Assembly (NCBI GenBank): GCA_965368975.1
Contig: CBDUPA010000019.1
Span: forward strand, 1 to 64,000
Reading direction: 5' to 3'
Origin: an uncultured bacterium
GTDB taxonomy: Bacteria > Acidobacteriota > Thermoanaerobaculia > Multivoradales > JAHZIX01
DNA length: 64,000 nt
The position numbers and the translations under genes are program-made. This document shows positions 2,584-59,091 of this stretch, in pieces. The first letter of the stretch is position 1; the number at the start of each line of letters is the position of its first letter. The notes below the pieces were generated by a model. That model saw nothing but the letters and a program-made list of their open reading frames with translations, did not search any database and was not told the origin of the DNA.

Positions 2584-4890
2584 ATGACCGAGCAGAAGCA
2601 GCCGGCCAAGCACATCGGTCCCTACCGCATCCTCGATACCCTGGGCGAAGGCGGCATGGGCATCGTCTACCTGGCCGAACAAACCGAACCGATCGAGCGT
2701 CAGGTCGCGATCAAGGTCACGCGGCAGCCTCGGCAGCAGTCGGAGCGGTTGCACATGCGATTCGAGTTGGAGCGACGCATCTTGGCCCGCATGGCCCATC
2801 CCAACATCGCGCGCGTCTACGAGGCTGGTGATCTCGACGATGGTAGCCCCTACCTGGTCATGGAGTACGTGCAAGGCGTACCGCTCGACCAGTACTGTGA
2901 TCAAGGGCACCTCGATCTCGACACCCGGCTGGAGCTCTTTCTCCAGATCTGCGCGGGCATTCACCATGCGCACCAGAAAGGCGTCGTGCATCGCGACATC
3001 AAGCCAGCGAACTTGCTGGTTCAGGAACAAGATGGTCAACCCATCGTCAAGATCCTGGACTTCGGCATCGCCAAAGATCTCGATACACCTGTCGACCAGA
3101 ATTTGACTGTCGGCATGCTCATGGGCACACCTGCCTTCGCCAGCCCCGAGCTGGCCGCGCAGGGAACCGGCGGTGAGGACGGGAGCATCGACATCCGTTC
3201 AGACGTCTACGCGTTGGGTGTCCTCCTGTACTCGCTGGTCGTCGGGCAACTACCACATGCCGAAGTCGACATCGGCTTACTGGAGTACATGGAGCGCGTG
3301 GCCCACCGAGAACCGGCTCTGGCGAGTTCCCGCCTCGGACAACTGCCCGTGGACCGACAGGTCGAGGTAGCACGGCAGCGATCCACGACGGCTTCTCGCC
3401 TTCGCCACCGGCTCAGAGGCGATCTAGACAGCGTCCTGGCAACTGCTCTGGCTCGCGAACGCGACCAGCGCTACGGGTCGGTGACAGCCTTGGCCGACGA
3501 TCTCCACCGCTTTCTGGCCTTCGAGCCCGTACACGCAGCCTCACCTGGCAAGCTCTATCTTGCCAAGAAGTTCGCGCGGCGCCACCGGACCGCCGTTGCC
3601 GTATCCGCATTGATCCTGACGATCTTTGTCGGAAGTCTGATCGCCCGCGATCACGAGGCTCGCAGGGCACGGCGCGCGCAATTGGAAGCACAATCCGTGA
3701 CGGACTTCTTGTTGGGCTTGTTCGCTGACGCCAAGCCGGCCGGATCCGCGGAGGAAGAAGTAACCCTACGTCAGGTGCTCGATCGTGGCACGGAACGTCT
3801 CGAGGGGCGCTTCACGGAGGAGCCGGAGCTTCGAGCACGCTTGCTGGAAACCATGGGCAAGGTTCATGTCGCGCTGGGCTCGTACGAATTGGCGCTGGAT
3901 TTACTGCTGGAGGCCGAGGAGCTGCACCTTCAAGTCGTCCCTGAAGCTCCGGAGGAGCATGCGTACCGTCTGCTCTGGCTCGGCACCGCCCAAAACGAAC
4001 TGCATCAGCTGGAGGAAGCCGAGACGTCACTCCGACACGCGGTTCGGCTGCATCGTGAGCATCTGCCCAACGAGCGCGCGGACATTTCCGGGAGTCTTCA
4101 TCAGCTAGCACAGTTCCTCCTCCGAACTCACCGACTCGAAGAAGCCGCGACGACCTACGAGGAACTGCTGAAACTGAACCTCGAGACCTCGGACGAAGCG
4201 GCGCTGATGCATGCCAGAGCGAAGACCGGTCTGGGAACCACATACGTGCGACTCGGCCAATTCGCTGAAGGCGCTGCGCTTCTCGAACAAGGAATGGAAG
4301 GCATGATCGCCTTCCTGGGCCCGGATCACTTGGACCTGGCAGGTCCGCTAACGTCCCTGGCACAGGCTCGTTTCCAGCTTGGCGAACCAGAAGTAGCCGT
4401 GCGCCTGGCCCGGCGCAACCTGGAGATCAAAGAAGCAGTCTTGCCTCCGAACCACCCCAAACTCGCCAGTTCGAACAGCAATATCGGCGTGTTCTTGGCC
4501 CAGATGGGCCGGGTCTCGGAGGCAGAGCCCTACTTCGAACGAGGCCTAGCGGTCCAGCGATCTTCGTTGGGGCCAGATCACCCTTCCTTAGCGCCCAAAC
4601 TTGAGAATCTGGCACTCGTCGCGATAAGGCTCGACAAGACGGCGGAGGCGATCACCCACCAGGAAGAGGCCCTGCGGATCTACCAAGCTCAGGAAACGCC
4701 GAACCTCGGGCGCATCCGCAAGCTGCTGGGGAGTCTCCTCGAACTCCATCGCGCAGTCGGGAGCACCGAGGCGGCGGCGTGGCTGGAGCGGGAACTCGCC
4801 TCCTTGCCTGTTGAAGCGAGAGATTCTGCTGAGCCTGGGATTGTGAGTATTGGCGAGACGGAGGAACGGGAGGAGAGCAGTTTGCTCTGA
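2584..4890 (+). CDS. Hanks-type Ser/Thr protein kinase with TM helix and TPR repeats (768 aa), paralog of 222..2528
   Basis: First ~306 aa identical to the previous gene; TM and TPR region diverged but collinear and of the same total length. Confidence 0.95.
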   Translation: MTEQKQPAKHIGPYRILDTLGEGGMGIVYLAEQTEPIERQVAIKVTRQPRQQSERLHMRFELERRILARMAHPNIARVYEAGDLDDGSPYLVMEYVQGVPLDQYCDQGHLDLDTRLELFLQICAGIHHAHQKGVVHRDIKPANLLVQEQDGQPIVKILDFGIAKDLDTPVDQNLTVGMLMGTPAFASPELAAQGTGGEDGSIDIRSDVYALGVLLYSLVVGQLPHAEVDIGLLEYMERVAHREPALASSRLGQLPVDRQVEVARQRSTTASRLRHRLRGDLDSVLATALARERDQRYGSVTALADDLHRFLAFEPVHAASPGKLYLAKKFARRHRTAVAVSALILTIFVGSLIARDHEARRARRAQLEAQSVTDFLLGLFADAKPAGSAEEEVTLRQVLDRGTERLEGRFTEEPELRARLLETMGKVHVALGSYELALDLLLEAEELHLQVVPEAPEEHAYRLLWLGTAQNELHQLEEAETSLRHAVRLHREHLPNERADISGSLHQLAQFLLRTHRLEEAATTYEELLKLNLETSDEAALMHARAKTGLGTTYVRLGQFAEGAALLEQGMEGMIAFLGPDHLDLAGPLTSLAQARFQLGEPEVAVRLARRNLEIKEAVLPPNHPKLASSNSNIGVFLAQMGRVSEAEPYFERGLAVQRSSLGPDHPSLAPKLENLALVAIRLDKTAEAITHQEEALRIYQAQETPNLGRIRKLLGSLLELHRAVGSTEAAAWLERELASLPVEARDSAEPGIVSIGETEEREESSLL

Positions 4891-12620: not shown

Positions 12621-15010
12621 TCTTCCCCACCCCCTCGAGCGTCGGGATCTTGGCGCACCATCGGGTTCGGCGGCTCCTTGGCCTTGAACAACTGGAAGCG
12701 ACTGCGCGCCGGCTCAGGCGGGTACACATTGTCGCCACGCTCCGCGTCGCCCAACTGCAAGTACGGATCGAGTTCGACCTTGACGATGTCCTGATCACTG
12801 ATGAAGAGCTTGGAAACGCGCTCGGCGTTGGTACGCCAGATTTCTGCCGGCAGCGTCATTGACTCGACGCTGCCGTCTTCGTAGGTCACGCGCAACGGCA
12901 GTGGCATGGGCAAGCCACCTATGTTCTCGAAGTCGACGACGATGAGCTTCTTGTTCATCGCCAACACTTCCTTATCGCGACCGTCGAGGCTGTCCAGATA
13001 CGCTTGGTGCTGCGCGTAGTCCCAGGGCGTAACGGCAAACTCGTCATACTCGTTGTAGAAGTCCGCCAAGGCCGGATAGCGATCGAGACGGCGCTCCATG
13101 CCCTCGTTGCGCTGCTCGCTCAGCGTCACCGGGCCTTCGGCTTCCTCCCGACGCGCCCGAGCCTTCTCCACCTCCGGATCGCGCGTGTCGAGGTCATAGC
13201 GGGTGATGCCGGTGACCGCGATGTCGACGTGGTGCGTGCCGTAGAACCAACCGCGCCAGAACCAGTCGAGGTCGACACCGGAGGCGTCTTCCATGGTGCG
13301 GAAGAAATCCGCCGGTGTTGGCCGCTTGAAGCGCCAGCGGCGAGCGTATTCGCGGAAGGCGAAGTCGAAGAGTTCGCGACCGAGGACCGTCTCGCGCAGC
13401 ACGTTGAGTGCGGTCGCCGGCAGCGCGTAGGCGTTGTTGCCAAACTGCAGCAGCGACTCGGAGTTGGTCATGATCGGCACCCGGCGGTCACTGATCATGT
13501 ACGAGACCATCTCCTGTGGTTCCCCTCGACGCGACGGATAGTCCTCTTCCCAAGCCTGCTCAGCGAGGAACTGCAGGAACGAGTTGAGCCCCTCGTCCAT
13601 CCACGTCCACTGCCGTTCGTCCGAGTTGACGATCATCGGGAAGTAGTTGTGCCCGACCTCGTGAATAATCACCGAGATCAAACCGTACTTACTGCGCTCC
13701 CAGGTGCGATCATCTCGACTCTGGCGGGCGTCCCAATAGGTGCCGTCCGGGTAAGGACGCGGCTTGTTGAAGGTGATCATCGGGTATTCCATGCCGCCAA
13801 TTGGACCGTTGACCGAGATGGAAACGGGGTACGGATACTCGAAGGTGAAGCTCGAATAGGTCTCGAGCGTGTGGATGATGGCATGCGTCGAGTAGCTGCT
13901 CCACAGTGGTTCCGCCTCGTTGGGGTAGAACGACATGGCCATCACCCGGCCCTCGTCGTCAGCCAGCTCCGCAGCCTGTGAGCGATGGCCCATGGCGTCC
14001 CAGATGAACCTGCGCGACGAGGCGAAGGCGAAGTCTCGGACATTGTCGGCCTGAAAGACCCAGGTCTTGGTCCCGGTGGCAGGCGTCTCCTGGTTTCGCT
14101 TCGCTTCCTCCGGCGTCACCACAAAGACTGGTGAGTCTGCGTCGACTGCCTCTTCCAGACGCTGGCGCTGTGCCTCGGTGAGGACCTCGTCGACATTCTG
14201 TAACACGCCGGTAGCAGCCACGATGTGATCGTCCGGCACCGTGATCTCAACCCGGTAATCGCCCAGCTCGAGCGTGAACTCACCACGGCCGAGAAACTGC
14301 TTGTGCTGCCAACCCTGGTAGTCCGTGTAAGCCACCATGCGCGGGTACCACTGCGAGATCTCGTAGATGTAGTTGCCATCCGCCTCGAAGTACTCGTAGC
14401 CGCCACGCGCACGGGCACGCACGGCGTCAATGACGTTGTGCTGCCAGTCGATGTGCAATTCGAATGCCTCTCCTGGAGCCAGAGGTCTCGGCAGATCCAC
14501 GCGCATCATGGTCTTGACGATGGTGTGCTTCAGGGAGCTACCTTGCCCATCATCAACACGCGTGATCTCGAAGCCACCCTCGAAGTCCGAGCGCTCCAAG
14601 TACTCCCCCAGCTTGCGATAGCTCAGCTTGTCGAAGTTCGGCGCCGTCAGCGTGAGCATCTCGTCCGAATCGCGGCGGAAGCGATTCTGGTCGAGTTGCA
14701 ACCACAGGTAGCGGAGCACGTGCGGTGAACGGTTATGGTACGTGATCGTTCCCGAGCCGACGATGCGCTGGTTCTGATCGTCCAGTTCGACCTGGATCTG
14801 GTAGTCGGCGCGCTGCTGCCAGTAGCCCGGTCCGGGTGCCCCGGAAGCGGTGCGATCAGCGCCGGGCGTCGGTAGCAGGTAGTCGAGCTGCGCGAAGGCA
14901 TCGGCACCGGTACCTTCGCCGGGTTCGTTCTCGGCGGCGTGAGCTGCACTCAGCGGGAAGATAAGAACGAGCAGGCAAGCGAGCGCAAACCGGCGACGAA
15001 GCTGGAACAT
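12617..15010 (-). CDS. Secreted M1-family zinc aminopeptidase
   Basis: GGMEYP motif, HEVGH followed by WMDEG (HExxH-x18-E), N-terminal PGYWQQRADY; signal peptide; SD GGAGGAG before ATG 15010 (ORF track starts at 15067). Confidence 0.92.
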   Translation of the reverse strand: MFQLRRRFALACLLVLIFPLSAAHAAENEPGEGTGADAFAQLDYLLPTPGADRTASGAPGPGYWQQRADYQIQVELDDQNQRIVGSGTITYHNRSPHVLRYLWLQLDQNRFRRDSDEMLTLTAPNFDKLSYRKLGEYLERSDFEGGFEITRVDDGQGSSLKHTIVKTMMRVDLPRPLAPGEAFELHIDWQHNVIDAVRARARGGYEYFEADGNYIYEISQWYPRMVAYTDYQGWQHKQFLGRGEFTLELGDYRVEITVPDDHIVAATGVLQNVDEVLTEAQRQRLEEAVDADSPVFVVTPEEAKRNQETPATGTKTWVFQADNVRDFAFASSRRFIWDAMGHRSQAAELADDEGRVMAMSFYPNEAEPLWSSYSTHAIIHTLETYSSFTFEYPYPVSISVNGPIGGMEYPMITFNKPRPYPDGTYWDARQSRDDRTWERSKYGLISVIIHEVGHNYFPMIVNSDERQWTWMDEGLNSFLQFLAEQAWEEDYPSRRGEPQEMVSYMISDRRVPIMTNSESLLQFGNNAYALPATALNVLRETVLGRELFDFAFREYARRWRFKRPTPADFFRTMEDASGVDLDWFWRGWFYGTHHVDIAVTGITRYDLDTRDPEVEKARARREEAEGPVTLSEQRNEGMERRLDRYPALADFYNEYDEFAVTPWDYAQHQAYLDSLDGRDKEVLAMNKKLIVVDFENIGGLPMPLPLRVTYEDGSVESMTLPAEIWRTNAERVSKLFISDQDIVKVELDPYLQLGDAERGDNVYPPEPARSRFQLFKAKEPPNPMVRQDPDARGGGEE

Positions 15011-15080
15011 GGGGTCTCCTCCAGGGGTCGAATCCGAAATCAGAACCGGCAGCAGAAGGGAAAGCAACTACAACCGTCGG

Positions 15081-15110
15081 AGATTACCAGCTCTCGACTC
15101 ACTGTGCCAA
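15081..15110 (-). promoter_or_regulatory. Putative sigma70 promoter of the M1 peptidase operon
   Basis: Minus strand TTGGCA-18 nt-TAATCT with extended TG (TGgTAATCT). Confidence 0.5.
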
Positions 15111-15156
15111 CGCCAAATCCCGTGCCCACCCAGCGATAGGGAGATCCCGCGGCGAT

Positions 15157-16164
15157 CTATAGCAACGCCAGGTCCGCGAGTAAGTCTTCTTCGCCGGTCG
15201 CTTCGGCACCGGCCGCGAAAGCCTCGACAAACTGAACCGCTGGGTCTTTCTGCTCGTCGAAGAGGGCCGCGGCCTTCAGCTCTGCCTCCAGCGTCTCTCG
15301 CATCGAGACCAGCAAGGGATCGACGAATTGCCGGGACATCAGGCAATAGGGCTCCTCGGCTCGCCGGTACTCCAGCAGTATGCAGAGCGCATCCGCCAGG
15401 TCCTGCCGATGGAGTTCGTTCCCAGGTGCCGCACGCAAGCGCTTGAAGAACTTGATGGCTGACTTGCCGTGGCCCAGTAGCTTCAACCGCCGTTCGCCGC
15501 GCACCGAGACCAGGCCAGATCGTCGCAGCCCATAGACTTCGATCGACTGCTTGGCCATCGCCTGCTGGAACGGTCCCGCCTCCGGATGCGGCCTGACGAC
15601 GCCTTGCTTCGTGAACTCCAATACCTGTGCAGGGTCGTCGCGGCAGGGATGTAGGAGCAGCGGCCGTTCTTGCGCCTCGGCATCCGGCTTCTCGGCTCGC
15701 TTCCCTTCTTCGTGCAATGGGAACAAGTTCTGCTTACCCAGGGACGCCTCTTCCCCATCCTCGAAGCGCTGCGTGCGCCTGCGGTTGCAGTCGATGCAGG
15801 AAGGCAGCAAGTTGTCCCAATCCGCCGCGAGCCACCAGTACCCGGGTTGCTTCAAGAGCTTCTTGCCCCCCTCTTCGACGACATAACCACCTTTGGGCCG
15901 GTAGTGCTCGACATCCATCGGCTGGGTCGCCTCGTAGGTGCTCTCGCAATAGGCACACTTGCCATGGAACAATTCGTTCAGGCGATCTTTGATCTCGAGG
16001 TCGCGGTAGACCTCGAAGTCATAGTTCTTGAACTTGCCATCTTTCTTGAACTTCGCCGGATCAGCATAGAAGGCTGCAGCTTTCTGGCGCTCCTGTTCAC
16101 CCTTCGAATCGACACCATCGAGGACGGCAGGAACGGCAACCCGAGTACGATCGACCTGAATCAC
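15157..16164 (-). CDS. HNH endonuclease, Septu PtuB / retron-effector-like
   Basis: FHGKCAYCE, DVEHYRPK, YWWLA.DW.NLLPSCIDCN, K.N.FP, PLLLHPC.DDP; SD GGGAGAGG before GTG; 10 bp downstream of the ATPase gene. Confidence 0.88.
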   Translation of the reverse strand: MIQVDRTRVAVPAVLDGVDSKGEQERQKAAAFYADPAKFKKDGKFKNYDFEVYRDLEIKDRLNELFHGKCAYCESTYEATQPMDVEHYRPKGGYVVEEGGKKLLKQPGYWWLAADWDNLLPSCIDCNRRRTQRFEDGEEASLGKQNLFPLHEEGKRAEKPDAEAQERPLLLHPCRDDPAQVLEFTKQGVVRPHPEAGPFQQAMAKQSIEVYGLRRSGLVSVRGERRLKLLGHGKSAIKFFKRLRAAPGNELHRQDLADALCILLEYRRAEEPYCLMSRQFVDPLLVSMRETLEAELKAAALFDEQKDPAVQFVEAFAAGAEATGEEDLLADLALL

Positions 16165-16174
16165 CCACCTCTCC

Positions 16175-18583
16175 CTAGGTCACATCCAGGATCCGTTGCA
16201 GCTGGCGATCCAGCGCCAGCTTGGGATCCTCGATCTCATCGACACCCAGCGCGGCAGCTTCCCGCGCCAGGTACAGGTCGATCGCCGTCAACATCAGCCG
16301 TTCCCGGCGCGTCTGGCCGAGCAGATGGAAGCTGCGCAAGTCCCGTTGCAGGTCACGCAGGCGCTCGCTCTGCTCATCACTGCGCTGGTCGAGCGCCAGC
16401 AACTCGTAATACTCCTCCAGCAAACGCGCCGACTCGGGATCTTGCGTGCTCGACATCCCAAAATGCTCGGACGTCAACAACTGGTCGACGCGCAGCGCCT
16501 TCACCGGCGGCAGGTCTCGTACCTGCACGATCTGCTGCCGGCTATTGCGACGCAGCACCACAACGTCCCCGTCTTCCAGCCCACGCAAGCACAGCGGATC
16601 GTGCGTCGTGGCGAGAAATTGCACCGCCGGGAAGGCCTTGCGTAGGCTAGAGACGATCTGCATCTTCCACTTCGGATGCAGGTGCGAGCCGAGCTCGTCG
16701 AGCAGCACGATACCTTCAGCGACCGCCATGTCCGACCAGCGATCGAGCAAGATGGACATCACCTCCGCGGTCAACGCCACCACCGTCTGGTACCCATCGC
16801 TGAGCTGTGTCAACGACACCTCAGTGCCGAAGAGCTGAACGTCGATGCGCTCCTCGGCATGGTTCTGACGCAGATCGTCCTCGTCACCCAGGTTGAGCAA
16901 CGCCTTGAACGATGGCTTGAGGTTGTCGAACTCGGCCGCCTCCAACCCAAGCAACCAGCGCTGGGCGTCTTCGAGTGGCTGGAAGGGATCAAAGAGATTG
17001 TGTGCGCGGGCAAAGTCGGTACCGTAGGATCCGTCCGCTTGGTGCGGCGACGCACGCGGGCGCGGCAGCAAGCGGGTGGCGCCGTAGGCGAGCAGCAGAA
17101 CTTTGGGTTCTTGGGCGCCTTCGAAGGCTTCGCTGTCCTGGTGGAAGTCGAGCTGGATTGGCTCGTTCATGCCGGAGAGAAACACGCGCACGAAGCCGAT
17201 GCCGTCACTGCCCCGGCGCACGAAGTCGCGGGCGTCGAGGTCGAGCGATTCACGGTAGCGTCGCCCCACCAGCGCCAAGGCCACCGCTTGCAGTACCGAC
17301 GACTTGCCCGCCCCGTTCTCCCCCAGTAGCACCGTCCACGGCCCTTCGCGTCGCGGCAGCTCGATGTCCAGATGTTCGATGCCGCGGAAGTTGTGCAGCA
17401 CGACGCGCTCGACGGTGCGGCTGCGCTCGTAATAGCTCTCCTTCGCGCCGGGCGCCGTTTCGCCCGACTTCTGGTCGAGCGAGTAGCTCTGCTGCACCGC
17501 CTGGGCGACCGAGAAGTCCTCAGCGATCTTGGCTTGCTCGTCCAAGGGCACAAAGCGGGTGTGCGCGAAGATGTCAGGTTCTTCCTCGCCGTCGAGGTAG
17601 ACAGGCCCTCGGTCCACCGGAGCCTCGAAACTCACGGGCGGACCTCCGAGGCCACGCCGCCGGTCGTCGCGCTCTCCGGAGGCGTGCTCTCCGGAGAGGC
17701 TCTCTTCGAAAGTCCTGCGGCTGGGTTCTCCCCGTTTGGGGCCTCCACGGCCAGGTCCCAGGTGTTTAGGGCCTCCGCGGCTGGGGCCTCGCGTCGGTCG
17801 TCGGGGACTCCTGCCAGGTATCCCCAACTCATCGAGACTCGCTTCTTCCGAGAAGCGGCGCACCACCTGCCGGCACATTCCGGCAAATTCAGCCCTGTCA
17901 CTCAGCATCGGCTCGATCCGAGACCACAACCGCGGAGCCTCGGACGGCGGCAGACTCGCAAGCACCTCCAACCAACGGTTCAGCCGCACCGAAACTTCGC
18001 GCCGCGCATCTCGCAGCGGCTCTCGATTGAGGTCGAACAACTCGATCGTGATGCGGCCGGGCTCGGTGTCGCTGGTCACCAAGCCATCGTCGGTATAGAC
18101 CAGGTGCTCTTCCGGGTTGTCAACTTGCGCGCACGGATCGAGCAGCAGGGGCCGCTCTTCGTCCAGGGCCTTGCCGGTGGCCTCCGGCTCGCAACGAGAA
18201 CCCCTGATGGGAAAGCGGTTGCGCTTGGTGGAATTGCAGACCTGGCAAGCCAGGTAGAGGTTGGACCACTCCCCGCTCAACCACCAGTAGTGGAGTGGAA
18301 AGTGCTCACCGTGGAGGTTTACGGTGTTCTGCCTGGGCCGGAAGAGCTCGATGCTCTCTGATGGCAGCACCAGGATCGACTCACAGAAAGCACACTTTCC
18401 ATGGAAGAGTTCGCGCAGGGCCTGCTTGACCTCCGGGTGTCGGTAGGCGCTGAATTGGAACCGCTCCTGACCTGAACTGCCGGCTTCCGTCTGGAAGAAC
18501 TCGCGAGCACGTTCGCGCTCGCGAGACCAGATGTCCTCGAGCTCAGGAGGCGCCGCGACGCGGTTGCGGTTGACGTGAATCAT
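16175..18583 (-). CDS. Fusion of a degenerate HNH domain with an ABC-type ATPase (Septu PtuA-like)
   Basis: N-terminal FHGKCAFCE..IELFRPR..NLYLACQVCN; C-terminal Walker A GENGAGKS, signature LSDGYQ, Walker B VLLDE, D-loop HLHP, H-switch TTHDP. Start at ATG 18583 (MIHV aligns with MIQV of the HNH); alternative GTG 18610. Confidence 0.88.
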   Translation of the reverse strand: MIHVNRNRVAAPPELEDIWSRERERAREFFQTEAGSSGQERFQFSAYRHPEVKQALRELFHGKCAFCESILVLPSESIELFRPRQNTVNLHGEHFPLHYWWLSGEWSNLYLACQVCNSTKRNRFPIRGSRCEPEATGKALDEERPLLLDPCAQVDNPEEHLVYTDDGLVTSDTEPGRITIELFDLNREPLRDARREVSVRLNRWLEVLASLPPSEAPRLWSRIEPMLSDRAEFAGMCRQVVRRFSEEASLDELGIPGRSPRRPTRGPSRGGPKHLGPGRGGPKRGEPSRRTFEESLSGEHASGERDDRRRGLGGPPVSFEAPVDRGPVYLDGEEEPDIFAHTRFVPLDEQAKIAEDFSVAQAVQQSYSLDQKSGETAPGAKESYYERSRTVERVVLHNFRGIEHLDIELPRREGPWTVLLGENGAGKSSVLQAVALALVGRRYRESLDLDARDFVRRGSDGIGFVRVFLSGMNEPIQLDFHQDSEAFEGAQEPKVLLLAYGATRLLPRPRASPHQADGSYGTDFARAHNLFDPFQPLEDAQRWLLGLEAAEFDNLKPSFKALLNLGDEDDLRQNHAEERIDVQLFGTEVSLTQLSDGYQTVVALTAEVMSILLDRWSDMAVAEGIVLLDELGSHLHPKWKMQIVSSLRKAFPAVQFLATTHDPLCLRGLEDGDVVVLRRNSRQQIVQVRDLPPVKALRVDQLLTSEHFGMSSTQDPESARLLEEYYELLALDQRSDEQSERLRDLQRDLRSFHLLGQTRRERLMLTAIDLYLAREAAALGVDEIEDPKLALDRQLQRILDVT

Positions 18584-18698
18584 GGAGAATCCAGACCCGG
18601 CCAGACTCACTCTGGATGCAAGATACAGAACTCACTTCGATAAGCTGACCTTGAGACGTAGCTTACCAGACACCCAACTTTCCACCCCGCCGCACGGC

Positions 18699-19427
18699 TC
18701 AGTACCCCGCTGGACGCAACCTCCCCCCCATCAGGAAGTCGAGCAGCGTCAGACCGTCGTAGACCGGCAGCCGCAGCTCGTTGCGCACAGCCTGGCTGCA
18801 CGGCGGCAGTAGGGTGCACTCGCAGATGAAAGCGCCGACGTCGTCGTGGGCATCGAGGATCTTCTGGGCGGCACCGATCAAGTCCGCGGCCATGGCGGCT
18901 TCTCGTTCCGGTGTCAGTTCCTTGGTACGCAGGAATTCCAGCCACGACTCGCACTCGCCGATGCCCTCGACGGTGATCGGGATGTCGTTCTCGCTCCAGC
19001 CGCATTCCTGGTAGTGCCATTCGCCTAGATCGGGAGCAAAGAAAGTCAGGATACCGATGCGCTTGTCGGGCATCAGGCGGTGCAGGGTGGGTACCCACAG
19101 CAAGGGCGACATGGCCACCGGCACGTTGACGGCGTTGGACATGGCGCGCTGCAAGTGGATCATGCGGCCGTTGCAGTTCTCGGTGATGGCGATGGCGCCC
19201 TCGGCTTCGAGCTGCTTGGCAGCGGCAACGTAGTCGGCTTCCATGGCCATGGCGGCTTCCTGGCTGCCGGGGCCGGTGGCGCCTTTGACGGTGCGGTGGA
19301 CCACCGGATAGGGGAAGCTGAGCGGCGTGGCGATGGCGCCAGGGATCTTAGCCATGTTGCCATCGAGCAAGAGGATACCGAGGAAAGGCTCGCGCCCTTC
19401 CCCGGCTCCCGAAGTGCCTGTACCCAT
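18699..19427 (-). CDS. Asp/Glu racemase-superfamily protein, copy 2
   Basis: LGILLL..IPG..FPYPV; Cys pair ITENCNG and ICECTLLPP; LPVYD; clear paralog of 19431..20183, 3 bp downstream of it. Confidence 0.8.
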   Translation of the reverse strand: MGTGTSGAGEGREPFLGILLLDGNMAKIPGAIATPLSFPYPVVHRTVKGATGPGSQEAAMAMEADYVAAAKQLEAEGAIAITENCNGRMIHLQRAMSNAVNVPVAMSPLLWVPTLHRLMPDKRIGILTFFAPDLGEWHYQECGWSENDIPITVEGIGECESWLEFLRTKELTPEREAAMAADLIGAAQKILDAHDDVGAFICECTLLPPCSQAVRNELRLPVYDGLTLLDFLMGGRLRPAGY

Positions 19428-19430
19428 GGA

Positions 19431-20183
19431 TCAGGCTCCGACGGCGGCCAGCTGCGGTGCAACACCGCGGCCGAGGTCGGCGGGACGGTAGTAGCCGCTC
19501 ATGGTCAGGTCGAGCAGCGTCAGGATGTCGTAGACCGGCATGCGGACGGCCTCCCGCACGGCGGGTAGGCAGGTCGGCAGCATGGTGCACTCGGAGACGA
19601 AGCAGCCGATGTCCGGGTTCTCATCCAGCAGCCGCTTGGCGGAAGCAATCAGGTCAGCTTCGAGCTGTGGCCGCAAGGTATCGGGAATCTCCTTGGTCGC
19701 CAAGAACTCGAGCCAGGACTCACACTCACCGATACCTCCGAGAGCGATTGGGATTTCCTTCTCGCTCCAGCCCGAGGCGTTGTAGTTGCGCTCGCTGACG
19801 GCGTGCGTGTGGAAGGTGAGAATACCGATGCGCTTGTCGGGCATCATGCGGTGCAGCGACGGTACCAGCAGCAAACCAGAGGTGACGATCGGTACCTTGA
19901 CGGCAGCGGACAGCTCCTTGTGCAGCAGCGCGATCAGCCCGCAGTTGGCGGTCATGGCGCCGACGCCCTTGGCTTCGAGTTGCTTCGCGGCGTCGAGGTA
20001 GAGCGGCAGCATGTTCCAGGCGTCATCGGCGTAGGTCGGGGTCTTGGATCCCTTCACCGTGTGTCGAATGACCGGGTACGGCCAGGTATCGGGGCAGGCC
20101 ATGCAGCCGGGTTCGACGGACATCTTGCCTTCCAGCATCAGGATGCCCAGCGGCGGACGGTCGGTAGCGGTGATCGCGGTCAT
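19431..20183 (-). CDS. Asp/Glu racemase-superfamily protein, copy 1
   Basis: LGILML..PG..TWPYPV; Cys pair MTANCG and VSECTMLP; MPVYD; SD GAGGAG; 76 bp after the NRPS stop. Confidence 0.82.
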   Translation of the reverse strand: MTAITATDRPPLGILMLEGKMSVEPGCMACPDTWPYPVIRHTVKGSKTPTYADDAWNMLPLYLDAAKQLEAKGVGAMTANCGLIALLHKELSAAVKVPIVTSGLLLVPSLHRMMPDKRIGILTFHTHAVSERNYNASGWSEKEIPIALGGIGECESWLEFLATKEIPDTLRPQLEADLIASAKRLLDENPDIGCFVSECTMLPTCLPAVREAVRMPVYDILTLLDLTMSGYYRPADLGRGVAPQLAAVGA

Positions 20184-20259: not shown

Positions 20260-23200
20260 TCAAGACGCCTCGGTGTCCTCCGGCTGCAGGCTGGCGAGCA
20301 CGGGCTCCAAGGGGATGCCCTCGGCCTCGCACGCTTCGGTCAGCAGAGCCGCCAGCTGGTCGACGCGGGGGTTCTCGAAGAGTTCCACCACCGGCACTTC
20401 CAGCTCCAGCAGTTCCCCGAGCTGGAAGCACAGTTGCGTCGCCAGCATCGAGTGTCCACCGAGGTCGAAGAAGTGCCCTTCGGCGGACACCGAGTCCAAG
20501 CTCAGGAGGCGCGCGTAGAGCCCCGCCACCAAGCGTTCCGCTGGGGTCTCTGGTTTTCGAGCCTCGGCAGCTTCCAAACTCTCGGCCTCGGTCGACAAAG
20601 GCCGCGAGGCCAGGGCACGGCGGTCGAACTTGCCACTCGGAGTGCGCGGCAGCTCGTCGAGCGGGACATAGCGAGACGGCAGCATGTAGACGGGTAGGCT
20701 GCGCGCCAGGAGGGTCTGGAGCTGGCGCCCATCCGCCGTGCCGCAGATCCAGGCCACCAGCTGTCTGTCACGGTGCACCACGACGGCTTCGCTGACCTCC
20801 GGATGGGTCAGCAGCGCCGCTTCGATCTCGCCCGGCTCCACCCGGAAGCCGCGCACCTTGACCTGGTCGTCGACGCGGCCCAGGAACTCGAGGTCTCCAC
20901 TGGCCAGCCGGCGGACCAGGTCGCCGCTGCGGTAGACGCGCCTGCCGCCGTCGGCGACGAAGCGCTCCGCCGTCAAGGCAGCACGCCGCCAGTAGCCGAG
21001 GGCGACGCCGGCACCATCGATCCACAATTCGCCGGCAACCGCCAGCGGCACCAGAGCGCCGCGGGGATCGTGCACCGTCAGGCCGACGCCCTCCAGGGGA
21101 CGACCGAGCAACGACGGTGGCTCCTCTTGTGAGGGCACACGGTAGGCAGCGGCCAGAATGGTTCCTTCGGTGGGGCCGTAGAGCACCCAGGATTGCGCCC
21201 ACGGCCAGCACGCGCGTACCTGCCGCAGGAGCTCGGCCGGTACGCGGTCGCCGCCGACGAAGACGTGACGCAAGCCCAAGGGCACCACGCCCGTCGCCAT
21301 CGCGGCCTGCAGCACCTGGCCGAGCAGTGCTGGTACCGCGTGCAGACGGGTGAAGCGCGGCAATGCTTGCACCAGTGCGCCAACATCGAGCGTCGGCGTC
21401 AACGCCACGAGCTCCGCCGTCGCACCGGCCAGCAGCGGCGCCAGTAGCTCGAAGGCGAAGATGTCGAAAGACGCCTGCGCCAGCACCGGCATGCGCTCAC
21501 CGGGTGCGAAGTCGAAGCGCCGTTGTGCCGAGGCCAGGGTTGAGGCCAGGCCAGCGCGCCGTACCACGACCGCCTTCGGCTTGCCGGTGCTGCCGGAGGT
21601 GTAGATCAGATAGGCGGGCTGGGAAGCTTGTGCTTCTCCAGCCTGTCCCGCAGTGCGAGAAACTGGCCTTGGCTTGGCGGATTCCAGGTCCTCGAACATC
21701 AGGACCCGGGTCCTGCCGTTTCCTCCCGGCACCGTCTCCAAGGACTGAAGTGCAGAGTCTAGGCCGGTCGACTGGAACTCCGCCGCCACCGAGCGCTCGG
21801 TCAGCAGCAGATGTGCCGCGGCATCGCGCAGCAGGTAGGTCAAGCGCTCGGCGGGCAGCGAGGTATCGAGCGGCAGGTAAGCGACACCCGCCCGCAACGC
21901 CGCCAGAAGCCCCACGGCGAGACGGGGCGTGCGGTCGAGGGCCAGAACCAACAGGTGACTGTCCGTTGCGGGATCGGCAGGGCCATCCAGGTACTTCTCT
22001 AGGTTGGCCGCCAGATCAGCTGAACGCGCAGCCAGCGTGGCAAAACTCAGATGCTGGACGCCACTCACCACCGCCACGGCGTTGGGGCGCACAGCGACTT
22101 GTGCCTCGAAGGTGGCCAGGACGTCGGGAATGCGAGGAACACCGGGGATCTCGGTGCGCACGGAGCGCCGCGTAGCGTTCCACTCGTGGCGTAGCTGGTG
22201 CTCCTCGGCCGCATCGAGCCACGGTAGTTCGAGCGGTGCCCGGGTCGGCGTCGCGACGGCCGAGACCAGCAACCGCCGCCAGTGACGCGCCAGGCGTCGG
22301 GCCGTGGTGGCGTCGAAGAGATCCGACCTGAAGTTGAGCGTTCCGACCACCTCCGAGGACGGGGCCCCCTCGGATGGGGTCGTTTCTTGCAACGACCAGC
22401 TCAGCTCGAAGCGTGCCAGCTGTGACTCACCGCCGAGGCGACTCCAGCGCGCATCGGTGAGATCCAGCGTCTCGCGCGGCACATTCTGCAAAGCCAGCAT
22501 GACCTGGAAAAGCGGTGAGCGCGAAAGATCCCGCTCCGGCTCCAAGTCCTCTACCAGCCGGTCGAAGGGGATGTCTTGATGCTCGTAGGCCTCCAGCGTC
22601 CGCGCCTTGACCTGCTCCAGCAGGTCGCTGAAGCTAGCGGCTGCGGCGGGATCGGCACTCAGCACCAGCGTGTTGACGAACAGTCCGATCAAGGCTTCCA
22701 GGTCGACCTGGACCCGGCCGGCGATGGGAGTTCCGAGCGTGACGCTGCCTTCTTGCTCGGCCTCGTGGGTGCCGCTGGCATAACGCACGAGCAGGGTGTG
22801 CAGGCCGGCCTGCAAGATCATGAACAGCGTCGCGCCGTGCGCCGAGGCCAGCTGGCGCAAGCCGGCAACTTCAGCCGCTTGCAGCCTCACCGGCACGCTG
22901 GCCCCACGGTCGCCGCCCAGTGGCGGCCGTGGCCGGTCGGTCGGCAAGGCCAACTGCCGCGTACCTTGCAGGCGCTGGCGCCAGTAGGCCAGTTGACGCT
23001 GCATTTCGGCGCCGCCGTCGCGCTCCAACCAGGTCCGTTGCCAGGCCGCGTAGTCGGCATATTGCACCGGTAGCGGCGGCAGTTCCCGCGACACGCCGGT
23101 GCGGTGGACCTCGTACAAGCGGCTCAACTCGCGCGTCAGGATGCCTAGCGACCAGCCGTCACCGACGATGTGGTGCAGCGTCACCGCCAGCACCCATTCA

Positions 23201-26200
23201 GCTTTCGCGAGACGCAGGCGTAAGCCGCGCAGCAGCGGTCCGCGACCGAGGTCGAAGGGACGCCCCGCCTCGCGAGACAGAAGCCGGCGCAGCCACGCCT
23301 CGCGCACCTGCGGCGGCAGGCGTCCCAGGTCGACTTCGGGCCAGACTTCTTCGTCGCTCGCCGGCACGCGTTCGAGCACCACCTGGGAGGGCGAACCACC
23401 TTGCTCCACCAGACGGATCCGCAGGCTCTCATGCCGGTTGCGCAAGTCGGTGACCGCCGCCGCCAGGGCGCGCGGATGCAGGTCGCCGTGGATGCGCAGC
23501 GCGGTCGGCATGTTGTAGATCGCCGACCCGGGCCGCAGACGCTCCAGGAACCACATGCGTTGCTGCGCGTAGGACAGCGGCAAGGCCTGAGATTCACGGC
23601 GGCCGGGAACCCCCTGCCACACGCGCGGCTGCGCCGACACCGGCGGCGGCGAGGCTACTGGCGTCTCCTCGGCCTCTGCTTCGAGCTCCGCTTCCCGTGC
23701 CTCCAAGCGAGCGGCCATGGCGCGCACCGTCGGTGCCTGGAAGATCTCGGACACCGACACCACGAAGCTGAGTTCTTCGCTCAGGCGCGTGGTGACCTGG
23801 GTCGCGAGCAGAGAATGCCCGCCCAGGTCGAAGAAGTGGCTGTCGGCGAAGACCTCGGGCAGCTGCAGGATCTCCTGGAACACCTCGGCGACGAATTCCT
23901 CGGCTGGTGTCTCGAGCGGCGCGTTGCCGGTGACGATCTCCGGCTCGGGCAGGGCACGGCGATCCAGCTTGCCGCTGGCGGTCAGCGGTAGCGAGTCGAG
24001 GATCAGCACGCGTGCCGGCACCAGGTGCGCCGGCAGACGCTGCGCGAGCGCGTCGCGCAACCGGCTCTCGTCGACCTGCCCTTGCACCTCTTCCTGCGGG
24101 TGGGAGGCCGGCGCCTCCAGAACCACCCAGGCGATCAGACGATCCCGGCGCACCTGCACCACCGCCTGTGCGACCGCGGGCAGATCGGCGAGGGCGGCCT
24201 CGACTTCCCCGGGCTCGACGCGGAAGCCGCGCACCTTGACCTGCTGATCGGCACGACCCAGGAACTGCAACTCGCCATCGGACGTCCAGCGGGCCAGGTC
24301 ACCAGTGGCATAGAGGCGCTCACCCGCGCCGCCGCTGCACGAGTCCGGCAGGAAGCGCTCGGCGGTGAGTGCCGGACGCTGGTGATAAGACGAAGCCAGG
24401 CAACCACCTCCCAGGTACAACGGTGCGCTGGCGCCCAAGAGTGCCGGCTGCCAGCCGCTCGCGCCCTCCTGGCCCCTGCTCTCCTGACCGCTGGCCATAT
24501 ACCCCTGTAACAAGTAGACGCGGGCCCCGTCCACAGGTCGACCGATCGGCGGCAGCGTCGGCCAGGTCTCCGGGGCGCCGGAGAGCGTGTGCGCGGTCAC
24601 CACGTGGCTTTCCGACGGACCGTAGTGGTTCTCCAGCGTGCACTCGGGCAGGGCCTGGAACAAGGCCGCCACCTCGGCGGTGACCTGCAGCTGCTCGCCG
24701 GCGGTGATCAGCGAGCGCAGCGGCAAGGCGACCGCTGAACGGCCTCCACCTTCCGCCGCGCGGCGGGCTTCGGCGACAGCTACCTCGGCCAGCTGACGCA
24801 GCGCGACGAAGGGCAGGAACAGCCGTTCGACGCGCAGGCGGACGAGCCGCGGCAGCAGCGCCGCCGGATCTCGCCGCAGCTCCTCCTCCACCACCACCAG
24901 CGTGCCGCCAGCGCCCCAGGTGACGAACAACTCCTGGAAGGAGACGTCGAAGCTGAGCGGCGCGAAGTGCAGGGTCCGCAGCGGCTGGCGACTCTGCTTC
25001 GCGACGCTGCGCGGTCGCCCAGTCGAGCGGCGCAGCTGCCAGGCGAAGAGATCGGCGAGCACCGCGTGCGGCATAGTCACACCCTTGGGGGTGCCGGTGG
25101 AACCGGAGGTGTAGATCAGGTAGGCCGGGTGCCACGGGCTGATCGAGGTCTCGGTGGCTAGCGACTCAGGGGCTGCCGGTACCGGACCTGAAACCGGCCG
25201 CGACGGCTCCAGCTGAAGGCGCGGCAAGGCCTGTGCCCACGCGGCGTCGAGGACTTCCAGACCCGCGCTCGTGAGCAGCAGTCGGAGTCCCGAGTCCTGC
25301 GCCAGGAAGCGGAGGCGCTCGGCCGGATAGGACGGGTCCAGCGGTACACAGGTAGCACCCGCGCGCAGCACGCCGAGCACGGCGACGGCAGTACTCAACG
25401 AGCGGGGCAGGCAGATGCCGACCGCGTCGCCGGGGCGTACGCCCGCGGCTCCCAGCTGGGTCGCCAGAGTGGCGGATTGACGTTGCAGTTCGGCGTAACT
25501 GAGATGGCGCCGACCGTGCACGACCGCGATGGCCTCGGCGGCTCGCAGCACACCGGCGGCGAAGCAAGCCCCCAGGGTTCGCTCCTGCTTCGCTGCCGGG
25601 GGAACAGCTGGAGTGTGGTTCCACTCGCGCAGCAGCTGTGCCCGCTGGGGACGACTCAGCAGGCTCAGCTCGCCGAGCTGCTGCCGGGGATCTGCCGTCA
25701 CCGCCGCGAGCAGCTGCCGCAGGGCGGTGCTCACGCGCCGGACCGTCGTGGCGTCGAACAGGTCGCGGTTGTACTCCCAGCGTGCCACCAGCACATCCTC
25801 GCCGTCGACACTGCGCCGCCGACCGAGGAACAGCGACAGCTCGAACTTGGCGGTATCGCTGGTCAGCGGCATGGGCGTCAGCTCCAGCTCCGCCTCGTCG
25901 ACGCTGCTCTGTGTCTGCAGGTTCTGCAGCGCGAAGAAGGCCTGGAACAGCGGCGAACGACTCGGATCACGGCGCGGCTCCAACTCGTCGACGAGCTTCT
26001 CGAAGGGCAGGTCTTGGTGCGCGTAGGCATCCAGGCACACCGTGCGCACCGCCGCCAGCAGGTCCAGGAAGCTCAGCCCCGGCTGCGGCTCGGCACTCAG
26101 CACCAGCGTATTGACGAAGAAACCGATCAGATTCTCAGTGCCCAGGTGACCGCGACCGGCCACCGGCGTGCCAACGGGCACGTGGTAGCCACCGGTGCCG

Positions 26201-29200
26201 GCCGAGCGTGCCAGACGACCGAGCACGACCTGGAAGGCCGCCAGGGCGGTCATGAAGGGCGTGGTTCCGGCCTGTCGGCCCAATTCCAGCAGTGGCTGCG
26301 CTAGCTCCGGCCCGAGGACCTCGAGCCACTCCGCTCCGCGGTCGGTCAAGACTGCCGGACGTGGCCGATCGATTGGCAGTTCGAGCACCGGCAACTGGCC
26401 CTCGGCGTCGGTCAACCGCTGGCGCCAGAAGTCGACCTCGGCTTGCAGGCGCGACCCGGTGAGCCAGCCTCGCTGCCAGATCGCATAGTCGGCGTACTGT
26501 AGCGGTAGCGCCTCCAAGCCAGAACCGTCTGCACCCGAGCTGGTACCGGCTGCGACCCCGTCTCGAACAAGAGCACGAGCAGCGTGGTAACCGGAGGTCA
26601 GCTCGCGCACCAGCACGCCCGACGACCAGCCATCGCTGATCACGTGATGCTGGTTGAGCAGCAAGGCGTGCGCGTCGCGCGACAGGCGCAACAGCGCCGC
26701 GCGCAGCAGAGGACCACGGGCCAGGTCGAAGGGCCGCCGGGCGTGCCGCTGTGCCAGATTCTCCGCCAGTCCCGTCGCCAGCCCGTCAGCGCCGGTCACC
26801 CGGCTCAGATCGACACACGGCAGCAGTGAGCGCGCCGCCGACCTCGACAGCGGAGCGGCGACCACCTGCATGGGCACGCCGTCGACGACCTGGAAGCGGG
26901 TGCGCAGACTCTCGTGCCGCGCTACCAGCGCCGCCAAGGAGTCCGCCAGGGCCCGCAAGTCCAGGTCTCCACCCAGGCGCAGAGCGCTGGGGATGTTGTA
27001 GGCGGCGGACGTCGGATCCAGCCGGTGCAGGAACCACAGGCGCTGCTGGGCGAAGGAGACCGGCAGCGGCTCCGAGTGACGACCCGAAGTGCTGTCGAGC
27101 CACTGGCGTGGTTGGGCCACCAGGGGTGGTGGCGAGGCACCGCCACCGCGACGCAGGGCGTCGACCGCCGCGGCCTGCGCGGCCAGCGTCGGCGCATCGA
27201 AGACGGTGCGCACCGGCACTTCAACGTCGAGCGTCCCCGTGAGCCGGTTCACCAGCCGGGTGGCGACCAGCGAATGGCCGCCCAGCTCGAAGAAGTCGGC
27301 AGCGCGGTCCAGTGGCCGCTCGGCGTCGAGGCCCAAGAGTTCGCCCCACAGCTCGGCCACCAACTCCTCCATCGGCGTCACCGGGCCACTGCCGGCGGAC
27401 GCGGCCGTGGCCACCGGCAGCACTGCCAGTGCCCGCCGGTCCACCTTGCCGCTGGCCGTCTGCGGCAGAGAGTCCAGCGTCCCCAAGGACGCCGGCACCA
27501 TGTAGTCCGGCAAGCGCTGCGCCAGGAAGGAGCGCAGCTCGGAGGAGGTAGGTGCGCTGGCTCCTTCCGCCGCCACGACCCAGCCAGCCAGGCGCTTGCC
27601 GGCGGCACTGCCTGGGGTAATGCCAGCGGTAGTGTCGACAGCCACCACTGCCGCCGCCCGTAGCGCCGGATGAGCGCCGAGCACGGTCTCGATCTCCGCC
27701 AGCTCGATACGGAAGCCGCGGACTTTGACCTGGGCGTCGCGGCGGCCAACGAACTCGAGCTCGCCCTCGCCGCTCCAGCGCACGAGGTCACCGGTGCGGT
27801 ACAGCCGCTCACCGGCGGTGCCCCAGGCACGGCTCGCCATGTCGGGCACGAAGACCTCAGCGGTGCGCGCAGCCTGTCCCAGGTAGCCGCGCGCCAGCCC
27901 CTGGCCACCCAGCGTCAGTTCGCCGACCACGCCAAGCGGCAGGAGTCGCAGGCGACGATCGAGAACGACTGCACGGCTCCCGGGCAGGACGCGACCGATG
28001 GGCAGGGTCGTCGCGCCTGGCGGCACGCGCCAGCCGGTCGAATAGGTGGTGTCCTCCGACGGTCCGTAAAGGTTCCACAGCACCAGGCCGGGATGCTGCC
28101 GGTGCAGGCGTTCGGCCAGAGCATGCGGCAGTGCCTCGCCCGCCAGATTGACCGTGGTCACCGACGGCGGCAATCCGCCGGTATCGGAAGCGACCAGCTC
28201 GCTGAGCACCGACGGAACGGTGTTGACCAGTCGCACCCGAGGTGCCGCCAAGGCTGTCTTCAAGGCCAAAGCATCGCGCAGCAGCACCACCGTACCCCCC
28301 GCCGCCAGCGGCGCGAACAGCTCGAACACCGACAGGTCGAAACTCACCGACGTCGCCGCGGCCACCCCGGCCAGCTCGTGGGCACTGTAGGTCGACAACG
28401 CCCAGTCCACCAAGGCACGGCCGGCACCATGACGGATAGCGACACCCTTGGGCCGCCCGGTCGAACCGGAGGTGTAGAGAACATAGGCCAGGCGTCGTTC
28501 GTCCGCGGGCACCGGCAAGATCGAGCACAGCGGAGCTTCGGCGGAAGCCTCGGGAGAGGTCTGCGCCTCAGGCTCGAGAGCTTCCAGCAGCAGACAGCCC
28601 GCGTGCAGCTCGGTGGGCACGCGTTCCAGGGTCGCTGCTTCCGCCAGCACCACTGGCGCGGCCATGGATGCGGCCGCGTCCCGGGTCAGGCTGTCCTCGA
28701 CGATCCAGCGCAGGCGCTCGGCCGGATACGCCGGGTCCAAAGCCACGTAGACACCGCCGGCCGCCAGCACCCCGAGCAGGGCCTCGACCAGCCGTGGTGT
28801 GCGCCGCAAGCAGATAGCCACTCGCGTCTCGTCGTGGCACTCGACGCCAGCCTCGGCCAAGCGCGCCGCCAGCGCCAGGGCTCGGCGTGCCAGCTCGCCA
28901 TAGCTCAAGTGTTGGTGCCCGTGGACCAGGGCTATGCGCTCCGGCAACTCGGCACTGCGCAGGAAGAACGGGCTGTGCAGGCCGTTTTCGTCGCCCATTT
29001 CAGGAACCGGCGACAGGAGCTCCGGCGACGCGACGGGATGACTGCTCCACTCCACCAACAACTGCTGCCGCTCGGCGCTGGAAGGTTGATCCAGGGTTTC
29101 CAGCAGCGCGTCCGAAGCGTGTGCCAGCTCGGCCAGCAGGCGCTCGAAGCGGCCCGCCCAGCGACGCGCGGTGGTGGCATCGAACAGATCGGCGTTGTAG

Positions 29201-59090: not shown

Positions 59091-59091
<1 letters not shown>
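20260..59091 (-). CDS. Giant NRPS, 12,943 aa, 11 modules: C-A-T, C-A-T-E, then nine C-A-T; no TE or R domain
   Basis: 11 C domains with HHxxxDG, 11 A domains with (Y/F)TSGSTG and the terminal catalytic Lys, 11 carrier motifs near 55695, 52370 (GGDS), 47495, 44135, 40730, 37290, 34020, 30665, 27275, 23815, 20455; one E domain followed by a DCL-type C (YPLAPAQQGMLFH). Confidence 0.97.
30495..30550. repeat. 15-nt in-frame tandem repeat (QQRVAQQTVSQQTVSQQT) in the T8-C9 linker
   Basis: Unit ccgtctgctgtgaga, two perfect plus two degenerate copies. Confidence 0.85.
50750..52210 (-). other. Epimerization domain of NRPS module 2 (approximate bounds)
   Basis: Motifs LTPAQRWFF, HHLVVDGVTW, EGHGRD, RTAGWFTALYP, FNYLGQ, TPSDFPL; preceded by a GGDSI carrier. 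Confidence 0.92.
57973..58038. repeat. 15-nt in-frame tandem repeat, ~4.4 copies (GANEDGANEDGAGEDGAGEDS)
   Basis: Unit ggcaccgtcttca(cc/tt) within NRPS C1. Confidence 0.9.

Follow-up and report, generated by a model that had tools for sequence, protein, structure and literature searches.

Why should the ATPase of a two-gene defence system carry at its own N-terminus a second copy of the nuclease encoded beside it, and why should that copy have leucine in place of the catalytic histidine? The question is raised by two genes, here called ptuA and ptuB, on contig CBDUPA010000019.1 of an uncultured acidobacterium, within the 64,000-nucleotide stretch that was analysed as a whole (the window). They are two co-oriented open reading frames (ORFs) on the minus strand, at 16175..18583 and 15157..16164, exactly where the original prediction had placed them, and every feature of the pair described below lies on that strand. 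The answer favoured here, with a probability of roughly three in four, is that the pair is a Septu type I system in which the fused domain of this ATPase is non-catalytic and the separate PtuB is the sole nuclease.

The identity of the two proteins is revealed by profile matches. The long protein matches the PADLOC model PtuA1 (PDLC00292, E 7e-220) and the short protein matches PtuB1 (PDLC00328, E 6e-77), in agreement with the Septu-type pairing proposed earlier. The ptuA gene (16175..18583, stop codon 16175..16177) encodes 802 residues, arranged as a PtuB-like N-domain, a disordered linker, an ATP-binding cassette (ABC) ATPase and a C-terminal helical region. Its start is taken to be the ATG at 18583, and an in-frame GTG upstream at 18610 is judged less likely, because homologues begin with MIxVxR. 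Positions 1-245 of PDLC00292 fall on 17849..18583 and positions 272-697 on 16241..17542. The ATPase core (residues 390-700, 16484..17416), delimited from Pfam, alignment columns and matches to PtuA chains in the PDB, contains Walker A (G421-S428), the signature (L594-Q599), Walker B (D629-E630) and the H-loop (H661). Within residues 390-664 it is matched by AAA_21 (E 1.8e-17), AAA_23, AAA_15 and SMC_N. In an alignment of 48 fusions (A1) the columns of all four motifs are invariant or nearly so, and G421, N423, G426, K427, G597, D629 and H661 are invariant. PtuA therefore has the four motifs of the ABC/SMC-type ATPase that is a feature of Septu type I, and an intact HNH-type PtuB lies directly downstream of it.

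The ptuB gene (15157..16164) begins with GTG and encodes 335 residues. The catalytic set E86, H87, N118 and N127 is complete, bearing out the claim that this neighbour is intact, and the codon of His87 lies at 15904..15906. PtuB passes NCBIfam TIGR02646 ('retron system putative HNH endonuclease') with 59.2 bits against a cut-off of 52.15; Pfam HNH matches in both proteins are below threshold only. The spacer of 10 nucleotides between the TAG of ptuA and the GTG of ptuB (16165..16174) carries a Shine-Dalgarno-like GGAGAGG, and thus the two genes form an operon; they would also be translationally coupled. Scans of 14900..18900 for promoters and terminators and for tandem repeats gave nothing useful.

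Septu genes occur both alone and as part of retrons, and the two situations differ in whether a reverse transcriptase adjoins ptuA and ptuB. None is present on the contig, so the earlier remark that the window lacks one stands: five PF00078 matches were found in the 7.1-Mb genome, all on other contigs, and the non-coding RNA of a retron was not searched for. The NCBIfam equivalogs for retron Ec78 are also far under their cut-offs (131.7 against 500 for PtuA, 66.7 against 150 for PtuB). The pair is therefore a stand-alone Septu pair, and a type I-A retron is ruled out by the lack of a reverse transcriptase on the contig. The type I-A retrons, equivalent to Septu type II (Ec78/Eco7 and Ec83), do have homologous PtuA and PtuB proteins, but retron PtuA is reported to have an unrelated N-terminal extension of its own that binds the reverse transcriptase (PMC12819146, PMC12804668). 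The locus is best described as a stand-alone (type I, retron-free) Septu operon, with anti-phage defence as its presumptive role from family membership.

The closest characterized arrangement is Septu type I of E. coli (PDB 8EE4, 8EE7 and 8EEA), which likewise consists of two genes, the first for an ABC-type ATPase and the second for an HNH nuclease, lacks a reverse transcriptase and has a PtuA C-terminal helical region in the same position. In contrast, the solved E. coli PtuA has 465 residues, lacks both the PtuB-like N-domain and the long linker, and matches only residues 588-677 of the protein studied here (E 8e-19). All solved PtuA chains are 456-552 residues long and match only its ATPase part. 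The C-terminal helical region of this PtuA (residues 705-802, 16178..16471), in which helices are predicted at 716-729, 736-751, 759-777 and 781-801, occupies the place of the extension that holds PtuB in the solved Septu and retron I-A complexes (PMC12819146, PMC12804668, PMC12475279) and may have the same role.

The N-domain (residues 1-255, 17819..18583) has a complete PtuB-like fold, comprising an HNH-like core and a helical C-terminal subdomain. In a single BLASTP comparison residues 1-209 of PtuA align with 1-231 of PtuB at 35% identity over 243 columns (E 3e-30). The alignment contains every motif from which the relationship was first noticed, namely ELFHGKCAFCES/ELFHGKCAYCES, YWWL..W.NL..C..CN, K.N.FP and ERPLLL.PC. 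An AlphaFold2 model of residues 1-255, made with 44 natural N-domains as the alignment, has a mean predicted local distance difference test (pLDDT) of 94.8 and a predicted template modelling score (pTM) of 0.91. Foldseek returned 11 PDB matches to this model at E <= 0.001, all 11 of them PtuB chains, belonging either to the complex of E. coli Septu or to Ec78 or Ec83 retron complexes, with probability 1.00 over about 205-300 columns; both the HNH part and the helical subdomain are therefore matched. The best of these structural matches are Ec78 PtuB chains (9nnb_J, 9u9y_H and others), and the E. coli PtuB chain 8eea_G is also among the matches (E 1.3e-4). By sequence, a phmmer search of PtuB against the PDB found nothing at E <= 0.001.

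The zinc-binding core of the N-domain (residues 60-127, 18203..18406) holds C64, C67, R82, P83, N108, C113, C116, N117, K120 and F124, the positions marked by column counts over 310 fused homologues. Both CxxC pairs (C64/C67 and C113/C116) are kept, as had been claimed, and the beta-beta-alpha fold with its Cys4 zinc site is thus present, as are the acid preceding the histidine position and the motif asparagines (E79, N108, N117). What is missing is the histidine. The DNA at this site, read directly, is atc gag ctc ttc cgg ccc, or I-E-L-F-R-P, where PtuB has D-V-E-H-Y-R-P-K, and the CTC codon of Leu80 lies at 18344..18346, exactly as first reported. The histidine of this motif is the general base of beta-beta-alpha-Me nucleases, a function that leucine cannot perform.

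The equivalence of this position with a proven catalytic residue was established through a profile of 51 stand-alone PtuB relatives (A2), in which DvEHyRPK aligns with IEHFRPRG of Ec78 PtuB, the histidine being residue 57. E86 and H87 of PtuB align with the catalytic E56 and H57 of Ec78 PtuB, and Leu80 of PtuA aligns with H87. In Ec78 PtuB the H57A substitution is reported to abolish defence and toxicity (PMC12819146), E56A and H57A each to abolish plasmid cleavage (PMC13376987), and His57 and Asn73 have been termed a catalytic dyad (PMC12804668); H71A serves as the dead-nuclease control in an Ec83-type retron (PMC12475279). Leu80 therefore occupies an experimentally validated catalytic position. 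That the N-domain nonetheless cuts, with some other residue as the general base, is scarcely credible: N108, N117, E79 and the zinc site are all in place, but alanine at the equivalent histidine of PtuB abolished activity in three retron-Septu studies (PMC12819146, PMC12475279, PMC13376987). PtuB would then be the only nuclease of the system.

The N-domain is joined to the ATPase by a Gly/Pro/Arg-rich linker (residues 256-345, 17549..17818). In an AlphaFold2 model of full-length PtuA (pLDDT 85.5, pTM 0.82), residues 262-333, a run of 72, have pLDDT below 50 and are predicted to be disordered. Because a pTM of 0.82 would be hard to reach otherwise with such a linker, the 255-residue N-domain is probably docked in cis against the ATPase body. 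The linker is unusually long and RGG-like, with the near-repeats GPSRGGPK and GPGRGGPK, and this PtuA and its four closest relatives measure 786-811 residues as compared with about 730 in most fusions.

Is this architecture a peculiarity of one genome? Two protein searches, one cut at its best 120 of 209 matches and the other at its best 150 of 1,278 with E <= 1e-30, gave 253 distinct long relatives, and 252 of these carry the N-domain, the exception being a protein of 594 residues. A further 58 fused genes in fetched loci bring the total to 310 fused homologues from several phyla. These 58 loci derive from a metagenome scan seeded with PtuB relatives (52), from genome contigs (4) and from a phylum-wide search (2). 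Another 28 of 80 metagenome loci were left uncounted, the upstream gene being cut by the contig end in 25, split between frames in two (L090 and L100) and unclear in one (L080). In the search of genome contigs with the full-length alignment A1, in which generic ATPase patterns also matched, 4 of 43 loci among the matches listed were of the fused type. In the phylum-wide search, PDLC00292 matched 12 of 401 genomes at E <= 1e-40, and the fused type was found in only two genomes besides that of the window. Among the sources named in the protein searches are Rhizobium, Bacillus thuringiensis, Actinoplanes, Tessaracoccus, Vicinamibacterales and Thermoanaerobaculia; further ones among the fetched loci are Kordia, Roseovarius, Sphingomonadaceae and Chitinophagales. 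Matches were also obtained on plasmids of Rhizobium, Sinorhizobium and Bacillus. The fusion is thus not rare, but represents a large subfamily, structurally unsolved and bearing a pseudo-nuclease domain, which is a variant of the well-described Septu.

Some members of this subfamily depart from the usual layout. P0017 (941 residues), P0215 (866) and P0236 (1042) are longer, and in P0017 precomputed matches to TPR-repeat Pfam families lie N-terminal to the HNH-like and ATPase parts as a further module. In the two split loci (L090:1699-4724 and L100:1-3184) the HNH-like and ATPase parts occupy separate overlapping frames upstream of a normal PtuB, giving three ORFs in the order HNH, ATPase, HNH, which may reflect a frameshift, a decaying copy or a truly split form. 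On plasmid pRlX3 of Rhizobium ruizarguesonis (L152, 3001..5273) the ATPase is annotated as 477 residues beginning at 3843, the tblastn match to the N-domain begins at 3001, and a small gene is annotated inside on the opposite strand; the record may hold a fused PtuA that is disrupted or wrongly annotated.

When all HNH-like regions were aligned to one profile, the fused and the stand-alone copies proved to differ sharply at the histidine position. Stand-alone PtuB homologues, of which the best 120 of 2,447 were taken, without exception have His there, and acid, His and Asn are complete in all 120. Among the 252 fused proteins from the protein searches the residues are H 135, Q 27, R 25, L 14, N 13, S 10 and M 7, the rest being scattered, and among the 58 fused genes of the fetched loci they are R 21, H 20, L 5, Q 3 and N 2, with other residues occurring singly and two gaps. 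Altogether His80 is present in 155 of 310 fused domains, His80 with Asn117 in 85, and the full set of acid79, His80 and Asn117 in 66; at least one of the three is therefore missing in 244. By contrast, an intact PtuB with E-H and N lies immediately downstream in 58 of 58 fused loci. Decay of the catalytic residues in the fused domain is thus a family trait.

The rest of the domain has been retained. In the 152 members without His, C64, R82, Y99, N108 and F124 are each present in all 152, and C67, C113 and C116 in 149 each. The basic residues beside the dead site are kept as well: among 252 fused proteins K63 is found in 231, R82 in 251, a K or R at the K120 position in 248 and an R or K at the R123 position in 228. 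A motif opening the helical subdomain, L.LNR..L...R, is invariant or nearly so in the fused domain and in PtuB alike.

One further difference between the two copies concerns the loop that follows the second CxxC pair, in which this PtuB has about 14 more residues than this fused domain. A deletion in the N-domain, leaving its short C116-F124 loop, was considered as the cause and is ruled out by the counts, which point rather to an insertion in the partner PtuB subfamily. From the second CxxC to the FP motif (PtuB 128-143, 15730..15790) 87 of 120 homologues have 21 residues, with near-invariant R128, R130, Q/H132 and G143, and the same loop has 7 residues in 263 of 305 fused domains, as in some canonical short PtuBs. 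The stand-alone partner PtuB thus seems to have gained a conserved basic loop.

The distribution of the histidine is revealing of the history of the domain. On a FastTree phylogeny of the ATPase part of 305 distinct fusions, at least 66 changes between His and non-His states are required, as compared with 101 +/- 5 (minimum 86) in 500 label shuffles; the state is therefore inherited within clades yet has switched repeatedly. Clades made up purely of His-less members contain up to 11 tips, with depths of more than one substitution per site, and the four cysteines are intact in 10/11, 11/11 and 10/10 of their members. The commonest replacements, R, Q, L and N, are each one base away from a His codon, which fits loss from an ancestral histidine. 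A tree of 286 HNH regions has a branch that sets apart 123 of the 125 fused domains, with no more than 2 of the 161 stand-alone copies on their side; the upstream HNH of the split locus L090 is one of these two. This grouping suggests, with modest branch support (64), that the fused copy arose through a single old duplication and fusion of ptuB. The ratio of nonsynonymous to synonymous substitution rates (dN/dS) is 0.17-0.40 for the N-domain and 0.09-0.15 for the ATPase part in eight measurable close pairs, and two His-less pairs give 0.186 and 0.165 for the N-domain. Such low values indicate that the N-domain is not freely decaying.

Does Leu80 itself belong to this pattern, or is it a recent private defect or a base-calling error, with both HNH copies of the system normally cutting and no special biology behind it? 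Several observations lend weight to the latter, and they are also the first of the points that weigh against the interpretation adopted here. CAC to CTC is a change of one base, as had been noted from the start, and no sequencing run was found listed, nor reads, from which the base could be confirmed. On the tree, all 12 of its nearest neighbours (P0003-P0010, P0014 and P0122, then P0127 and P0128) have His80, and Leu80 is therefore private to this lineage. The pair was not found in any of the five same-family genomes searched, and with the closest relatives at no more than 52-54% identity there is no near copy to confirm the leucine. The original prediction had allowed that homologous fusions might mostly retain the histidine; this is true of the 12 nearest relatives but does not hold for the family, in which half the members have lost it and about a fifth keep the full set.

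Other reservations concern sampling and modelling. The relatives are the best-scoring matches to this query and not a random sample, and 52 of the 58 fetched loci come from a single metagenome scan with two search patterns, of which one demanded a His in some HNH copy; where the match was the stand-alone PtuB, that pattern introduces no bias on the state of the other copy. The 66 fused domains with a full catalytic set may still cut. The pairs used for dN/dS are few, and six of the eight belong to one cluster of near relatives and are not independent. No solved structure of the fused type was present in the PDB copy searched, and the argument for docking from the pTM of a predicted model is indirect.

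Against these points, a private defect or sequencing error is improbable on the evidence of the sub-clade itself. In its four closest members (P0003-P0006) Asn117 is replaced in all four (V, L, L, L) and acid79 is missing in three, so that this sub-clade had already given up an intact active site. Moreover, the loss of catalytic residues extends to most fused domains, and in the window neither gene is broken and no structural residue has been lost.

The proposed explanation is that the fused PtuB copy would have lost the need to cut and would be maintained by purifying selection for a non-catalytic job, one that depends on the fold and not on catalysis. The job preferred here, as a judgement put somewhat short of even odds, is that of a nucleic-acid or substrate-holding arm, which would be docked on the ATPase body and would present DNA or tRNA to PtuB or sense it. 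This preference is based on the continued conservation of the basic residues beside the dead site (K63, R82, K120 and R123).

As a tentative second choice, the fused domain could act as a built-in regulator, the tethered dead copy binding the PtuB docking site on PtuA's C-terminal region or pairing with PtuB, and thereby holding back, licensing or positioning the nuclease, much as the original prediction had suggested with its docking, inhibition or licensing. The N-domain keeps the entire PtuB fold including the helical subdomain, which two C-terminal extensions of PtuA grip in the solved complexes (PMC12819146, PMC12804668), and the nearly invariant L.LNR..L...R motif of that subdomain is common to both copies. 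A low-confidence AlphaFold3 model of an HNH dimer formed through the C-terminal part has also been described (PMC12475279). However, a contact of the N-domain with PtuB or with PtuA's C-terminal region is hypothetical, and since PtuB retains its own C-terminal subdomain the two copies would have to compete for one site. A third possibility, that the dead HNH is a decoy soaking up phage-encoded inhibitors aimed at PtuB, would suit a close structural copy of PtuB held in the same complex, but a decoy would be expected to track the PtuB surface, and here it is the catalytic residues that vary and not surface patches generally. The fused domain also shares only about a third of its residues with its own partner and belongs to an old clade of its own, which makes the decoy highly improbable.

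The original prediction had also raised the prospect that the architecture was already catalogued, and in part it is. The fused architecture is contained in three PADLOC PtuA1 models of 726-773 positions (PDLC00292, PDLC00288 and PDLC00291), the first of which covers the whole fusion. Stand-alone PtuB matches positions 2-255 of PDLC00292 and this PtuA spans 1-697 in two pieces (1-245 and 272-697), and hence fused proteins were among those from which the PADLOC Septu type I hidden Markov models were built. The catalogue lists the models as plain Septu type I PtuA, however, and not as a separate subtype; the PADLOC paper, as far as searched, contains neither such a subtype nor a remark on the dead site. 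The full-text literature searched yielded no account of a domain derived from PtuB on PtuA, or of the dead active site in such a domain, and supplementary gene lists may hold the fusion. No phage-tested member of the fused subfamily was found in that literature.

The surroundings of the Septu pair are not a defence island. The neighbouring genes encode an M1 peptidase, a DUF6702 protein, an Fe-alcohol dehydrogenase, a lamin-tail/EEP protein, two kinases with tetratricopeptide repeats (TPR), a SpoU methylase and a giant non-ribosomal peptide synthetase. A few genomes from its order carry the pair at 43-44% identity, and this occurrence, with the pair not found in the same-family genomes searched, fits a mobile, patchily spread module. 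The synthetase gene (20260..59091, minus strand) is one ORF of 12,943 residues with repeated condensation, adenylation and carrier-like sequence and takes up most of the window. Its G+C content, about 0.70, is above that of the Septu pair (about 0.61-0.67). Between the two lie tandem paralogous ORFs of 242 and 250 residues on the minus strand (18699..19427 and 19431..20183), neither with a Pfam match at E <= 1e-5, and tandem paralogues of 768 residues on the plus strand (222..2528 and 2584..4890) each combine a Ser/Thr protein kinase domain with following TPR repeats.

The annotation of such pairs matters, as public records name these proteins only 'AAA family ATPase' and 'hypothetical protein', which are also the only names given to the pair on a Bacillus cereus plasmid. 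The control of stand-alone Septu is itself debated, with ATP inhibition, a phage tail-fibre trigger and a DNA or tRNA target variously described (PMC12819146, PMC12804668, PMC12475279, PMC13376987). A natural subfamily with a second, mostly dead nuclease copy on its ATPase is a ready-made experiment, in which the PtuB fold would have a function apart from cutting, and the fused layout may throw light on target handling by Septu or on the control of its nuclease. It is conceivable, if doubtful, that the fused domain is a pseudo-enzyme switch, a dead PtuB paralogue that occupies the docking site, pairs with PtuB or captures DNA or tRNA, and so sets when and on what PtuB cuts. If this were true, the repeated independent decay of the active site would be a record of a regulator evolving from an effector inside a defence system, and would provide a handle on how stand-alone Septu stays silent and is then triggered. 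The finding is of moderate interest for work on the regulation of defence systems.

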